A DNA stretch of 63,776 nucleotides, filler included, from Collodictyon triciliatum (lineage: Eukaryota), in the NCBI GenBank assembly GCA_043381765.1. It is 9 parts of 9 records of this genome, joined end to end, with 100 filler letters (N's around TTAATTAATTAA, not from the genome) between each part and the next. Parts side by side here need not be neighbours in the genome. Positions count along the whole stretch, not along the records: positions 49,700 to 56,688 come from JBHJMP010004121.1; 8 more parts are not named here. One strand, 5' to 3'. The notes beneath the pieces are model-generated. The model was not told where the DNA came from and made no database searches. It was given only the letters and a program-made list of their open reading frames with translations. This document shows positions 49,838-56,788 of the stretch, piece after piece (positions within the stretch are counted from its first letter, which is position 1; every line of letters starts with the position of its first letter). Made by a program: the position numbers and the translations under genes.

Positions 49838-50536
49838 ATGAGCACTCTGCAGAAAGCAGCAGCACTCGGGTGTATAGTTGTTGTGACAGCATTGATACTG
49901 CCAGCTATCACTACATCCAACCCAGTCGGGGATGAAATCTGGAGCGAAGTTCGCCGCAAGCTCGATAACTTTGACCATGTTCAAAACATGGCTGTGATTA
50001 TCGGAGACGGCAATGGGGAGCTGTTTGTTCATGAAAAAGGTTCGTCTGATACTGTGAACTCATAGAAATATAAGGGGGTTGGGAATCAAAGAATTTTAAT
50101 CATTTGTTGGAGTTCGCGACATGAAGGCGGGTTATACCATTTAGACAAAGAAAAATAAGAAGAAAAGGAAAGGAAAGGAACAAAGATTGCTATCGATTAT
50201 TTAATTTTTTTTTTTTTTTTTGTTAAAGAGATAGATAGCGAACTTTTTTCCTGTGAACATATATTTGACGTTTTAAAATCCCAACTTCACCAAACAAAGG
50301 CTGGTACACTCGCGATACACCGACTCGTATTTGGAGCTCCAGCAAATGGATCAGCGGAATGGCAATCATGCGCTTGGTCGAACGCGGGGTAATGAGCCTG
50401 GATGATAAACCTAGCAAGTATCTCCCATACTGGACCACAGACCCCGAAGCCTGGCAATCTGCAATTACTCTTCACCACCTCTTGTCCTTCACATCGGGAT
50501 ATGGACACTCAGAAGCCCGCTGCACCATGGTTCACC

Positions 50537-50635
<99 letters not shown>

Positions 50636-53600
50636 ATGGTCAAATATACGCTCACCTCCACATTCCAAATGCCACCATGCACATGTTGATGATGAACCCA
50701 AGCAAAGATATGATCATATCAAAATATTTAATTCTTTTTACTTTAGAATACAGAGTATAGCCTGGCTGATTGTGTTCGTGAAGTTTATGAGATCTACCAG
50801 GAGCCAACAAACTACCCGGGAACCATGTTTTCTTACGGCGACCAGCATCTCCACATTGCCGGACAGATGGCTGTGATTGCCGCTGGGAAGGACAGTTTCC
50901 AGCAGCTCATCGACGATGAAATTGCAATTCCCAATAACATCGGACAGCCGTTTCGATTCTGGAATGAAGGCGGTTTCACACCTGCTGCTGGCCTTTTTAC
51001 AACACCCGCGATGTATGCTAAAGTCCTTGAAGCATACATGGCCGGCCGAATTCTCAAGCCAGAAACTGTCGCTTTGATGGAGACGGACCACACCCCGTAT
51101 CCCATATCATATTCGTTTATTCGATATGGCTATGCCCATTGGATTGTCTGCGAGATGGGGGATGTAACTGCTCCATGCGCCAATGAAAAGATCCACCATA
51201 GTGGCGGCTGGCAAGGCTATTACCCAGTTATTGACAGAAAACTTAATTTTTGGGCTGTTTTTGCCAACATCGGAGAGTTTGGAAACACCGACGCAAGCGA
51301 TTTCTACCTAAAAACAAGGTCGACTATAAGAAAGGCTGTTGAAATGTCCCGTTATGCAAAGACTATAGCGATGATTAAAGAAGAAGATAAGGTCGGGAGT
51401 CGGTTGAAAAACCTTGGAGGCTCTGTCGTGGCTATCATGAAAGATGTAAGTTTTTAACACGTCAAAAAATTGAGGCAAAACAGATAAGTGATATACTGGG
51501 GTTTCTTATCTTCAGCTGGTTCGTCGTCCTGGTGGCTCCTTCGTTTCTGGCTATCAAGGGAAGTTTCGAGACATGGGCATATGTGTTGGTCAACCTTTCT
51601 ACGATCAGGTTAGTGATACAAAAATATTTGAAGATTTTTTTTTTTTTTTGCGCGTTGATGAACTCTGTAATGGTATAAATCTATTTTCAGCCGATTGTTT
51701 CTTCATGCACGGGATTTCTTGTGTCTTCGAGCCAGATTGCCACCTCAAGTGAATGGTATTTTCAACTATGGGATGAATTCTAATTTACATAAAAAAACTG
51801 AGAAAACACTGGATATCAGACTACATGCAATTAATGCACAAAGGCCTTATTCTCTTAAAAAAAATTCATCCTGTCCATAATAAAAACACAGCATTAAGGA
51901 TATCAACGAATGCCGAAGATCCTACTTTGTGTTTGACTATGCTTTGGATGAAAAAGGGCTTGCTCGCACAGAATTTCGGTCCAATCAAGTACGACTTTCC
52001 TTATTGTTTTCTCCCTCAAAAGATTTCCTATAAATTAACTCAGCATGATAATCCTCTTTCATATAATTCATTGCTTAAGTGATTTTCCTGCGCGCCTCTA
52101 GGTTTACACCTGTCTGGGATATACAACTGATGCTCGTGGAAATGTTATTGTGACACTAGAAAAGCAAGTTCTCGGACGTAGACCTTTGAAAATCGCATCT
52201 GCTAAGGTTATTCATTTTTTGAGGGCCGAAAAATTAATCGTACAGCACACCCTTGATTATATATGTCCTGCGCGCTTGTTTGCGGTGTTTTTTTTTTTTA
52301 AATAGTGAAGCTGCATCTATTGTGCCCAGTATGCCAATTTTTCTTTGCTCAGATCGAAACAGGCGAATCGGTGATGGTAATTGGACATCCAAACGGACTG
52401 CCAAGGAAGTATTTCGAGGGTGGCAGTGCGCGAATAAATGATAATGAATTCTTTGCATCGTTTTACATCACCGTAAGTTTTAAACAATTTGATGGACTAT
52501 ACTAGCTTATCTCCTTTACATATTGGTTCCTCTCGTGAATTTTTATTTTTGATGTTGGTTTTTGTTGCTACTTCTTTCTCTTTAAAATTTAACTCGATGC
52601 AAACTATGTGTCTTTCTCGGTTTTCTTACAGATTTCTTATTTCTTTATGAATCCTCCAGGATTCCGTCATATTTGGAGATTTGACAGGCTCTCCTGTGTT
52701 CAGAAAGGGGGAAGATAAAGTTGTTGGTATTTTCAAAACAAAGTCCATCGGCTTGGCGGTCGATTTGGAGCGAAAATGCATGGTTTCCCAGGTATGCAAG
52801 TCGCCATTTGGCAATGACGACTGCAGAAGCAACATGGTCTCTGATGCAACTTCTCTTTCGGCCTACTTGAATATGCCCTGCAAAAGAGACTCTGATTGCA
52901 GCTTCAGTGGGACTTGCAAGGCTGGCACATGCATATGCTCTGATGGCTTCTTTGTAAGAAATCTGATATATTGTGAATGAATGGGATAACAATATCATAT
53001 ATATACGGCTGAAATAAAAGAGCTTTTTTTATCTGGGTTTACCTGCATAGGGTCGTGATTGTTCGTATGCTGCTGGGTTTGAATTGTGCAATATGCATGG
53101 AATATTTGTCGGATTTGACCATTGTTTGTGCATGCCTGGTCGTGGAGGAAAGTATTGCGAGACAAGCAGTGTTATGCCACGTAAGCTCAGAGAAATACCA
53201 TTTGGTACATACTTTTGTGCTCACCACCATCTCATATTTCATTTCCTTACGACTGTGGTGGATATGAGGTTATAGTTTATTTAGATAGTAAATTAATATA
53301 TATATATATTTAGCAAGCATCACACTGGCACCTCAAGACACTTATTCCTTCGGCTTCGGATACTCTGTTTCTGCTGACGGCCCGCTTGTCGCGGTTGGAC
53401 AACCATTTTGCCCATCAGCAGAAACATGTGACGGGGGCATTGTGTCCATCTTCTACGACATCGGCGGCTTTCTTTACCAGATCGGTCAAATATCAAACCC
53501 CCAGGAAACAGCCGACGCCAGATGCGGGCAGAAAGTTGTCATCAAAGGCGAATATGTCTACATCTCTTGTGCATCCAGCACATTAGATGAGGGACAAAGC

Positions 53601-54542
53601 TCGGCCTCAATTCTGGTATTCCAATACGAGGATGCATCATGGAACTACCGTAAAAGAGTCCTTCCTCCAGCGTGGGACAGTATCGAGCCGGTTGAAAGCC
53701 TCTTTGGTGCTTCATTAGATGTCCTAAGCGCATTTATGGCCGTGGGGGCCCCTCGTGCTCATGATGAAGACGATGTCGTTACTGGAGCCGTTTATTTTTA
53801 TGTAATGGACTCGAGTCAGGGATGGGAGCAGAATCCATCCAAAATCGTGCCAGCTGATGGGCAAGCGGGAGACAGTTTTGGAGTGAGTGTAGCGATTAGT
53901 CAAAACATCTACTATGTTGAACAGGTCAACTGGACAAGGACTGAGGCAGAGGACTTTGACTACTCATACCTTCAGCGATGGGAGCAACATATTGCAGTCG
54001 CAAGCAAGCCATCAACGAGAGAGTCGAGCGTCTACCTCTACGCTTTCGACGAGAGCGGATTTCGCCTCAAGGGCATTGTCAGAGCCTCTGGATCCGGGTT
54101 GCTCTCCTTGTCTGTGGCCCTGACTCCGACGTCCCTGATAGTTGGAGACCCAGGATTCAGCGTCTCTGGTGTAGAGTGTGGAAGCGTCTTTGTGTACGAC
54201 ATCCGCGGCGCGGCTCAAATCACTGTGACACAAACACTTGTCCCTAATTCACCGCGTGATGGGCAGCTCTTTGGTTTCCGCATCGCGGCTTTTGATGAGC
54301 GCTTGGTGGTGTTTGAAGGCCAAGCATCTGCAGCGCCGTCATCTGTGCGCGGCTTCACCGTCTATCAGTCACGCCCGAACAAACTCTCCTATGCTGCAAC
54401 TCGCCATGCGGCCTCTGACTTCTTGCCACTGGGTAGCGAGTTTGGCGCTGATTTGGCGTTCAGTGCATCAGGAATCATCGTGGGTGCGCCACTTGCTGAA
54501 GGCGATTATCCTGGGCGTGGTGCTGTCGTTTTGATTCCGTAA
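49838..54542 (+). CDS. Secreted 1087-aa mosaic: signal peptide, beta-lactamase-family serine hydrolase, inactive trypsin-like domain, two EGF-like units, FG-GAP beta-propeller
   Basis: Eleven exons with consistent phases: 49838-50039, 50300-50529, 50747-51445, 51516-51608, 51691-51755, 51892-51988, 52102-52206, 52353-52472, 52660-52953, 53051-53180, 53314-54542 (3264 nt). Motifs: WSSSKW, LLSFTSG, FSYGD, HSGG; CTGFLV, IGHPNGLP, TGSPVF; CICSDGFF|GRDC; FGASL..AVGAP, FGVSVA, IVGDP, IIVGAP. Confidence 0.85.
50539..50634. repeat. (TAT)n intronic microsatellite
   Basis: Perfect trimer array inside intron 50530-50746. Confidence 0.95.
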
Positions 54543-54984
54543 GAGCGTCCTGTGATGCAAGGGTCGAGCTCATGCTTTTGCCTCTGTGAAAAGCATGCCC
54601 AGACATCCGAAGATGACGGAAGGGACTGCGATGAAATAAAGATGATGCAAGTGAAGCGCGGCGGTGTGATGAAGGGCGCGTGTAGTTGTCCGTCTTTGGC
54701 TCTCTGGCCGTGTGATGATAAATCTGGTGTTCTAATGCGGAATTTATGATGATTACTTCTTATTGCCACCTCTTTCGTAGTAACTGTCGCTTTCATCTGG
54801 TAAATATTTACGCGCATGTAAATTCACACTAGTATTACATCAGTGTGTTCTGCAATGTTTAAGAATCAGGAAGGGTTTGCTTTTTGCGCAAGACGGGCTC
54901 TTTCTTTTGATTCATTAGAATCGGATTAGCCGCCAAGCCGAGTAATCAAAGGCTATACAGAAGGACGCTGCGCAGTCGGAGCGA

Positions 54985-56366
54985 ATGAATCCCGCAAAGC
55001 AACTGAAGCCGTCGTTTGAGGGGCACCATGTAAGTGGCCCGTGATCAACACTGTGATTCTTGACTTAACCTCTCTCTCTGATCTGTATTCTGCGCGCTGT
55101 TATTCATATTTTTACTTTATTTTTTTCTAACTTGCTTTTTTCTTTTTGCTTTCGATTAGTTTTTTTTTTTAAAATTATATTATTTAATTACTGACGTCTT
55201 TAGTTTTTCTTTTTCTTTTTTTTAAAGGTGGTGTTTCCTACAAAAATCGTGAATCCGCATCTTTGTTGCCCGCTTTGTGGAGGTTATTTCTTCCAAGCAA
55301 CCACAATTGTCGAGTGTCTTCATTCGTGTATGGAAGTTAACTTTTTCTTTTTTTATAAATAAATAAAAAAAAAAAAAGAAAAGCAGAGGACTTTGATACA
55401 TATATATTTATTTTAATGGAAAAAAATAATTTTCTTTCTGTGGGCTTGTTTGTTGGTGTATTTTTTTTCTTTGAACACCGCAATATCCAAACTATATTAT
55501 GTGAACGCAGTTTGCAAGGATTGCATCTACAAATACTTGGATGAGATACAGGAATGTCCGATATGTCAATTACCTGTGAATGCAAACACGTTTGATGAAG
55601 TTGTCAAGTATGTTGTGCTCTTTTGCACACATTACAACTATATTTATTTCTCGCAATTATAAGCCGCTCATAAATAAATACTCAATAAAAGTTAAGATAT
55701 TAAAAAGAACCACAAAAAAAAAAAACCACCTTTCTTGAAAGATAAGAAAATTCAGATTGCCGTGAAAAAAAAGGCTAAAAAAATGTGAAGAGAAGCGGAT
55801 GTAGCAATCGTATCTCATAATTATCTCTGACCAACAAGCACAGACATAATTATAACGCTTTTGTTGCTTAATTGATATCATATTGGACGTACTTGTATTT
55901 ATAAACATACCATTTCATTCATGAATTCAATTATTTCCTCGTATTCTTTCAGGCCTGACAATGTCCTTCAGTCGCTGGTAGATAAACTCTTTCCAGACAT
56001 TGCAAAACGGGACGAGGCCATTAAACTGGAATATCAGCGAATCCACGGAATTGATGAGAAAGAGCCTGGTAAATGTCACATCCTGGAGCATTCATTATAT
56101 ATTTATGTGAACCGCGTCTTCTTTTGTAAATAAAAAATAGTGTTGGTGATTTTATATCCCATTTTATGGTGACATTTTCTTTGTCACAAACACTTATTTC
56201 GTAATGTCTGATGTGCAGAAGATTTATCGGTATCAGCTAGACGCAAACGCTCCGCTGCAGCAGTCGCTAAAACTCTCCCAAACAGCAAACATTCAAAAGC
56301 GGATTCATTTGCCATCCCAAAAACCGCGATGGATGTTATTTCGTTTCATATGTTGCCTTTGGACAG
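54985..56366 (+). CDS. PCGF: Polycomb group RING finger (PCGF/BMI1/Psc-like) protein; 3'-truncated
   Basis: [35 protein letters not shown]...CPIC...|[14 protein letters not shown] is the characteristic PCGF RING and post-RING motif. Confidence 0.9.
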
Positions 56367-56688: not shown

Positions 56689-56788
56689 NNNNNNNNNNNN
56701 NNNNNNNNNNNNNNNNNNNNNNNNNNNNNNNNTTAATTAATTAANNNNNNNNNNNNNNNNNNNNNNNNNNNNNNNNNNNNNNNNNNNN

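Follow-up and report, generated by a model that had tools for sequence, protein, structure and literature searches.

Why would a protist gene join a hydrolase of the beta-lactamase fold to a protease that has lost its active site, and is it one gene at all? The locus that raises this question lies on the plus strand (49838..54542) of a 63,776-nucleotide stretch of DNA, filler between its parts included, from assembly GCA_043381765.1, filed under Collodictyon triciliatum; we refer to this whole stretch as the window. From nearest homologues we infer that the host is a Diphylleia-related (Diphyllatea, CRuMs) freshwater phagotroph. An initial annotation had read the locus as one spliced gene for a secreted protein of four modules: a hydrolase of the beta-lactamase/DD-peptidase fold, a dead trypsin, epidermal growth factor (EGF)-like units and an FG-GAP propeller. 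That single-gene reading holds, and the analysis adds what it had missed: a chimeric origin, surviving unfused relatives and a small paralogue family. We hold the gene model and the fusion history proposed below with very high confidence.

A single spliced gene of four modules

Splicing of 11 exons across 10 introns gives a single open reading frame (ORF) of 1087 amino acids (aa) followed by a stop, with no internal stop, within one gap-free contig (C4121 of the source genome). All ten introns are GT-AG with compatible phases, and their GC content (0.19-0.38) is below that of every exon (0.41-0.53). The apparent stop at 51457 is intronic, as had been proposed, and the N-terminal leader is the only hydrophobic segment of the product, in keeping with the predicted secretion without a transmembrane segment. 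Pfam matches comprise Beta-lactamase in exons 2-3 and FG-GAP_2 in exon 11, with EGF-like matches in exons 9-10 whose single-exon scores are below the cut-off; together with the matches in the orthologue, they support the four-module layout.

When exon 3 was searched against longer proteins, one of 525 candidates matched, namely P0001, of 1083 aa. P0001 and P0003 are unannotated, complete Trinity transcript ORFs of Diphylleia rotans (EukProt EP00002 P037586 and P037585), with the same four modules in the same order and the same dead triad. P0001 is colinear with our model from end to end (535 of 1079 residues identical, 50%), and its Trypsin_2 and EGF families score above cut-off, with Beta-lactamase at 90.8 bits. 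The hydrolase is the best conserved module, with 68% identity to Diphylleia against 43-47% for the others. Isoform P0002 ends by read-through right after the position of intron 9, as expected from a retained intron. For Diphylleia the searches returned one cluster, of transcript predictions only, whereas we count at least four in the source genome.

The architecture is apparently confined to these two diphylleids among the searches run, and apparently undescribed, with every module known. In a HMMER pass over 1.84 billion representatives, P0001 was the only full-coverage match among the best 150, and the protease-EGF(-propeller) matches looked up from that pass were all from Diphylleia. Among 13 matches from a word-seeded search at comparable lengths, both domains occurred in P0001 only. 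A metagenome scan with P0001, sensitive to close relatives only, gave 33 pattern matches, none of them confirmed. Open PMC and bioRxiv texts yielded no description of the architecture (subscription journals lie mostly beyond that coverage) and no enzyme work on diphylleids; the terms lactamase, trypsin and peptidase are absent from a paper on diphylleid transcriptomes (PMC11603278). The architecture is thus rare and, within the papers searched, undescribed, in line with the annotation.

RNA evidence from the source organism came from four freshwater runs of 11 matching runs, in which the X2 and X3 pieces are identical and count as one data set. All 16 contig pieces placed map to exon 3, to exon 11 or to the 3′ end, and one also shows splicing of intron 2 by joining exons 2 and 3 (loose end at window 50499-50528). 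Of the junctions that the annotation had listed for checking, 51445/51516, 52953/53051 and 53180/53314 are bridged by no contig. Since none spans intron 3, 9 or 10, which tells against the model, a single transcript is demonstrated for Diphylleia and predicted for this organism. The uncovered interval, 51236-53245, is uninformative given short exons and low depth.

It is on intron 3 that a model of two separate genes, or of an assembly artefact, would depend, with the hydrolase ending at 51457 and the remainder belonging to another gene; chimeric Trinity transcripts are also possible. However, the fusion joint lies upstream of that stop, inside exon 3, and exon 4 onward has neither a start nor a signal peptide of its own. 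The four copies in the genome and another species' transcript are concordant, the contig is gap-free, and we regard the two-gene model as exceedingly improbable. The structure is not due to chance, because it has a full-length colinear orthologue, the ten intron positions recur in three paralogues and RNA confirms junction 2.

Fusion history and the inactive protease

Six loci in the source genome match exon 3. Three of them (C4459, C2161 and C2470) are further four-module genes that share 10 of 10 intron positions and phases with this gene, C2161 being cut short at aa 1010, where its contig ends. In C4459, exon 1 appears to contain an additional intron, probably an aligner artefact, so the boundary of that paralogue's intron 1 is approximate. 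C1191 is a stand-alone hydrolase gene that shares introns 1 and 2; it has no protease, and its product closes with a Ser/Thr/Pro spacer followed by a hydrophobic tail. This tail (gene at L012:4172-5937) resembles a glycosylphosphatidylinositol (GPI) signal, the Pyxidicula relative P0081 has a similar C terminus, and the last intron of C1191 has an inferred GC donor (GC-AG). The sixth beta-lactamase-fold locus, C10391 (L006), is fragmentary and differs in its intron positions.

Six unfused genes (C1932, C9237, C132, C1118, C4847 and C7618, at L015-L020) encode a leader, a protease and two EGF units, and two of them show a propeller in the available sequence. Introns 3-9 are shared by all six (two C1118 positions are shifted in the alignment), with intron 3 in the same aligned column as their first intron, and intron 10 is also shared by C1932 and C4847. 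By motifs, this secreted family of bacterial-type S1 protease-EGF proteins has four active members, which keep the triad, and two dead ones, C4847 and C7618. C4847 seemed to be extended at its N terminus, but this was an aligner artefact; the gene carries its own leader.

Judged by these introns, the gene is a chimera, with introns 1-2 from a stand-alone beta-lactamase-fold type and introns 3-10 from a trypsin-EGF-(FG-GAP) type. On the same grounds both parent types persist unfused in the source genome, and the fusion is unusually readable, the child carrying the introns of both. We place the joint inside exon 3 (~aa 345-362) because the end of this exon is already protease and intron 3 matches the first intron of the unfused genes. 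Against a protease N-terminal profile, the exon-3 tail of this gene beats 200 of 200 shuffles and that of P0001 197 of 200, at low bit scores, and the V/I-V/I-YG start motif of the parents is lost at the joint. Before the split from Diphylleia rotans, the first exon of a secreted protease-EGF-EGF-FG-GAP gene thus received a secreted, peptidase S12/family VIII-like hydrolase gene by fusion; duplication followed. In effect, one serine-hydrolase chemistry has replaced another while the secreted scaffold stayed the same, giving a lineage-specific architecture from known parts rather than a new kind of system.

The protease domain matches Trypsin_2 in the orthologue (36.8 bits against a cut-off of 27.6), and a profile of eight active relatives at E 1e-55. 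Its triad is replaced by Glu429 for His (51751), Gly475 for Asp (52138, ungapped register) and Thr546 for Ser (52684), so the trypsin is dead as annotated. The oxyanion Gly is also replaced, by Asp544, and the Asp six residues ahead of the nucleophile is lost. The label trypsin is right as to the S1 type; more specifically, and missed before, the domain is of the bacterial glutamyl-endopeptidase/V8-like kind. Its nearest clusters are mostly from Bdellovibrionota (a lead only) and its nearest structure is 1P3C. A branch with 98/99 support separates 15 diphylleid protease domains from 13 others, two of them named bacterial, and the domain is likely of bacterial origin. The catalytic Ser motif is kept in 12 of the 13 non-diphylleid rows. 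P0171, a metagenomic relative with the His replaced and the Ser motif altered, is an independent dead copy outside the diphylleids.

The triad is absent from all five fused proteins and kept in four unfused genes and four Diphylleia relatives. The dead domains cluster with 96/94 support under LG+G4 but only 81/92 under a mixture model that included further outgroups, with long branches, and because they cluster together, inactivation plausibly, though not certainly, preceded fusion. An approximately unbiased (AU) test rejects a clade of all propeller-bearing genes minus C4847 (p 0.002), a post hoc constraint that separates P0008 from P0016 and carries little weight.

Pairs that include this gene are mostly saturated at silent sites, and the ratio of non-synonymous to synonymous substitution rates (dN/dS) was taken from C4459 (L008) and C2161 (L009). 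Values of 0.07 for the hydrolase, 0.09 for the dead protease, 0.08 for the EGF units and 0.12 for the propeller show purifying selection on every module, the dead protease included. Silent divergence within this pair falls from 2.2 at the hydrolase to 0.17 at the propeller, and intron 10 is 75% identical against 40-56% for introns 1-9. This mosaic suggests that the 3′ end underwent gene conversion or crossover, by which 3′ ends would be homogenised and heads kept distinct. C12240 nearly duplicates C4459, with introns 98% identical, and C12843 is a further close fragment; both may be alleles.

The predicted propeller in exon 11 scores 63.9 bits for FG-GAP_2, against a cut-off of 23, with seven repeat starts near aa 693, 749, 809, 867, 942, 998 and 1055, spaced 56-75 aa apart. 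Its integrin match is weak (E 0.85), and integrin alpha traits are missing: there are no Ca-binding DxDxDG loops and no hydrophobic membrane segment, and the product ends at blade 7, with no leg domains. The inserted loop of blade 4 is 63% identical to that of the Diphylleia orthologue, as against 37% to paralogues C4459 and C2161.

Table 1. Layout of the gene in the window; positions count along the whole stretch.
Feature	Position	Strand	Details
Exon 1	49838..50039	+	Start codon; signal peptide ~aa 1-27; onset of hydrolase domain; orthologue has the same leader
Intron 1	50040..50299	+	Phase 1, aa 68; same position in stand-alone hydrolase gene C1191
Exon 2	50300..50529	+	Motif I, S80-S-S-K83, at 50335-50346
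Intron 2	50530..50746	+	Phase 0, aa 144; contains TTA repeat; position common to C1191
Exon 3 (chimeric)	50747..51445	+	End of hydrolase, onset of protease domain
Exon 3, motif II	50834-50848	+	Y174-G-D-Q-H178, with Y-G-D as motif II; Tyr174 at 50834-50836
Exon 3, motif III	51200-51208	+	S296-G-G298 (probable register)
Fusion joint (approximate)	51347..51400	+	aa 345-362; hydrolase fold stops, protease homology starts
Intron 3	51446..51515	+	Phase 0, aa 377; donor GTAAGT; in-frame TAA at 51455-51457
Exons 4-9 and introns 4-8	51516..52878	+	Inactive S1-type protease domain
Exons 4-6	51516-51608, 51691-51755, 51892-51988	+	
Exons 7-9	52102-52206, 52353-52472, 52660-52953	+	
Exon 10	53051-53180	+	
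Two teneurin-like EGF units	52879..53180	+	aa 611-671, spanning intron 9 (52954-53050)
Intron 10	53181..53313	+	Phase 1, aa 678-679; position common to unfused trypsin-EGF-propeller genes
Exon 11	53314..54542	+	Seven FG-GAP_2-type repeats, no membrane anchor; stop at 54540-54542
Inserted loop of blade 4	53898..53987	+	~30 aa
3′ untranslated stretch	54543..54651	+	Covered by one RNA contig

Around the gene, a downstream gene at window 55207-55608 (+) encodes a C3HC4 RING finger, which presumably resembles those of Polycomb-group RING proteins. Upstream, window 47592-49340 (+) holds pieces of an intron-rich gene that look like coiled coils, three scanned pieces having no Pfam match below E 0.05. 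Window 49600-49699 is a scaffold gap, with runs of N around a 13-base TTAA-repeat spacer and microsatellite flanks; the gene starts 138 bases beyond it, and a similar gap lies near 56700.

Active-site motifs and relatives of the hydrolase

Exon 2 alone scores 63.2 bits for PF00144, against a cut-off of 27. In a 99-row alignment of the domain, S80, K83 and Y174 are each found in 98 rows, so that SxxK and the catalytic Tyr are intact as claimed, and H178 is found in 89. In the profile, Tyr174 pairs with the YSN of R61. Motif II here is Y-G-D, without the Asn of YxN, and Asn is outside the five commonest residues of that column. Motif definitions follow extracts of PMC12903863, PMC7092541 and PMC4752606.

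The annotation had taken HSG as the third motif, and in this gene and P0001 H295-S-G297 does fit (K/H)(T/S)G by letter. Conservation points instead to S296-x-G298: G298 is present in 93 of the 93 rows with a residue there and S296 in 78 of 99, as against 7 of 99 for H295. The paralogues read H-S-L-G, T-S-L-G and G-S-P-G, losing HSG and keeping S-x-G. Motif III is probably S-x-G, with HSG out of register. This register comes from the subfamily alignment and 5TGF; a C-terminal profile aligned motif III with no characterised enzyme. Four Cys are conserved in the subfamily. The class C NCBIfam model gives at best 16.3 bits (P0001) against a cut-off of 865, and the R61 DD-peptidase is the third profile match (E 1e-21).

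For structure comparison, we used a model of the Diphylleia isoform P0002 and compared its hydrolase (residues 28-344), most of which has a predicted local distance difference test (pLDDT) above 90, to known folds. A P0001 model built without an alignment was unusable (pLDDT 32). The nearest folds are 5TGF (Z 33.6), EstG (32.2), EH7 (32.0) and the family VIII esterases 4IVI and EstB (31.2), followed by NylB, LovD, D-amino acid amidase, Lip3 (9SN1, Z 29.6) and ClbP (Z 29.2). R61 and class C enzymes are outside the 50 best structural matches by Z, and appear in the Foldseek list from rank 20.

We flag the hydrolase as a member of what appears to be an uncharacterised S-x-G/YxxxH subfamily of the beta-lactamase fold, spread over bacteria and several protist lineages. 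It occurs, mostly as a stand-alone protein, in Myxococcota, Alpha- and Gammaproteobacteria and others (80 kept of 501 stretches), and among eukaryotes in Pyxidicula, Guillardia, Diplonema and Artemidia (four of ten looked up). A quick tree, from which P0002, P0003 and the cluster members P0153-P0167 were excluded, places the six diphylleid domains in a single clade with 99 support by the Shimodaira-Hasegawa-like approximate likelihood-ratio test (SH-aLRT); because the backbone is unresolved, we claim neither donor nor direction of transfer. In none of the 91 other rows is a protease domain fused to the hydrolase. Fusions to alpha/beta esterases occur in three of 16 homologues scanned as long or eukaryotic. 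P0020, P0069, P0070, P0010 and P0136 are subfamily members fused to chlorophyllase-like, BD-FAE or dienelactone-hydrolase domains, or tandem double hydrolases. Across the 80 bacterial loci, no neighbour is conserved in more than six (own shadow ORFs aside) and there is no protease fusion.

Proposed function and comparison with known systems

By the chemistry of this family, Ser80, activated by Lys83 and Tyr174, would form and then hydrolyse an acyl-enzyme. We propose that the product enters the secretory pathway and acts, in soluble form, inside the food vacuole or at the feeding groove, where its probably active head would cleave ester or unusual amide bonds of prey material, not the D-Ala-D-Ala bond. 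Candidate substrates include acyl decorations of envelope polymers, lipids and non-ribosomal peptides; for ester hydrolysis, the structural neighbours and the three esterase fusions are no more than hints. The dead protease, EGF stalk and propeller may together form a scaffold for targeting or for holding the substrate, and would replace the GPI-like anchor seen in the stand-alone parent type. Such a protein would be a concrete, expressible candidate for the processing of prey or prey toxins in a deep-branching, bloom-eating flagellate; diphylleids engulf Microcystis and other cyanobacteria as well as algae, according to extracts of 10.1101/199125. A hydrolase of prey esters or amides on a dead-protease scaffold is a mechanism that we believe and doubt in about equal measure. 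Several points weigh against it. Binding by the dead protease or propeller is predicted and assumed, and the P0002 model is unusable over the protease (pLDDT below 50), so that the folds of protease and propeller rest on sequence, the usable model having resolved the hydrolase only. The register of motif III was obtained with no alignment over the motif to AmpC, R61 or EstB. The Z-scores of esterases, amidases and peptidases are only 1-4 units apart, and a shared fold is no proof of function. The gene neighbourhoods of the bacterial relatives (80 loci) point to no substrate.

The annotation had favoured action on bacterial prey envelopes or antibiotics, which would make the enzyme a DD-peptidase or beta-lactamase able to cut the peptidoglycan stems of prey or to degrade antibiotics. 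The PF00144 fold with SxxK and Tyr, the R61 profile match and the literal HSG of this gene and P0001 are in line with this, and some family VIII esterases hydrolyse nitrocefin or cephalosporins (extracts of PMC7092541). Either activity is nonetheless unlikely, because the Asn of YxN is absent, motif III is probably S-x-G and esterases dominate the nearest folds; an ester/amide hydrolase serving prey digestion or detoxification is the likelier reading. HSG is lost in the paralogues, the class C score is far below its cut-off (16 bits vs 865), R61 and class C enzymes are missing from the top 50 by Z, and EstB, which also lacks KTG, has neither activity (extracts of PMC4752606). The claim of action on D-Ala-D-Ala or beta-lactams is thus weakened, and we consider this reading improbable. 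A further candidate reading is detoxification, with the dead protease capturing cyanobacterial or bacterial anti-grazer peptides (cyanopeptolins, aeruginosins, linearised microcystin or lipopeptides) and the S12 head cutting a D-amino-acid amide or lactone bond, compare MlrB and the DL-peptidases Lip3/Lip7 in bacteria. Diphylleia rotans degrades microcystin in axenic culture, by a second-hand report in extracts of PMC9142107, and cyanobacteria make serine protease inhibitors thought to be grazer deterrents (extracts of PMC3765200 and PMC6070996), for which the four active parent-family proteases in the genome are possible targets. MlrB and Lip3/Lip7 have the same SxxK/Tyr core, and the C-terminal domain of Lip3 forms a substrate cleft (excerpts of PMC11070527 and PMC12903863); Lip3 and ClbP are also among the structural matches. 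Yet the Asn173 and His307 proposed for MlrB are unmatched here (Asp176, and Ser296 in the conserved register), the canonical inhibitor pocket is remodelled because the oxyanion Gly and the Asp six before the nucleophile are gone, and the hydrolase subfamily, being present in Guillardia, diplonemids and a testate amoeba as well, is no specialty of cyanobacteria feeders. We rate detoxification as quite unlikely. Its boldest form, a first eukaryotic bait-and-destroy enzyme in which the organism's own disabled bacterial-type protease traps cyanobacterial protease inhibitors or related peptides for cleavage by the fused S12 hydrolase, with varied heads on a homogenised stalk, has in our view little chance of being correct; if true, it would be a molecular handle on the reported breakdown of microcystin by Diphylleia.

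The enzyme could also be directed at the cell itself (coat, cyst wall, mucus, or GPI/lipid remodelling), or the dead protease could regulate or pair with active paralogues. GPI-like tails on C1191, Pyxidicula P0081 and protease P0015 and a membrane segment on P0016 argue that both parent families are cell-surface proteins, and the unfused dead proteases (C4847 and C7618) argue for a role independent of the hydrolase. Against this, relatives of both catalytic domains are mostly bacterial, and the homogenised stalk carries several divergent heads, so that varied foreign substrates would fit better than a single self substrate. A self-directed role is rather unlikely, and we keep the hydrolysis of prey esters or amides as the preferred reading.

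Among known systems, the closest in fold are family VIII carboxylesterases and related proteins (EstB 1CI8, 4IVI, EstG 7UDA, EH7 7PP3 and the FmtA-like Flp 4GDN), with Z 30-34 and root-mean-square deviations of 2.4-3.8 over 276-303 residues. They share the SxxK and Tyr triad (SxxK and Y-x-x as defined in extracts of PMC7092541), and like this gene they lack KTG. At motif III this gene probably has S-x-G rather than WGG or H-x-x, although the HSG register would fit H-x-x. The subfamily further differs by its conserved His four residues after the Tyr and its four conserved Cys, at an identity of only 15-25%, and this enzyme comes from a eukaryote, is secreted and sits on an accessory region of 740 aa. 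The nearest structure, 5TGF, is the only solved relative and has no assigned function.

MlrB, the D-aminopeptidase DAP and Lip3/Lip7 add to an S12 core extra C-terminal domains that can shape substrate choice, as may be the case here, going by extracts of the papers cited for them above. These enzymes keep YxN and the His or Lys of motif III, whereas this gene has Asp176 for the Asn and would match the His only in the doubtful HSG register, and their extra domains include no protease fold, EGF units or propeller. The bacterial glutamyl-endopeptidase/V8-like S1 proteases have a domain homologous to the one here, with the same Cys pattern and GHPxGLP motif, from which this gene differs by lacking the triad, the oxyanion Gly and the VVYG-type N-terminal start. 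In GPI-PLD, a secreted enzyme head is tethered to an FG-GAP propeller. The Streptomyces trypsin-(FG-GAP)n proteins (extracts of PMC2605481) likewise place a secreted enzyme head on such a propeller, as here. Both have a single catalytic domain, with no beta-lactamase fold and no dead protease, whereas the protein described here carries a hydrolase head and an inactive protease on a propeller of the FG-GAP_2 type without DxDxDG loops.

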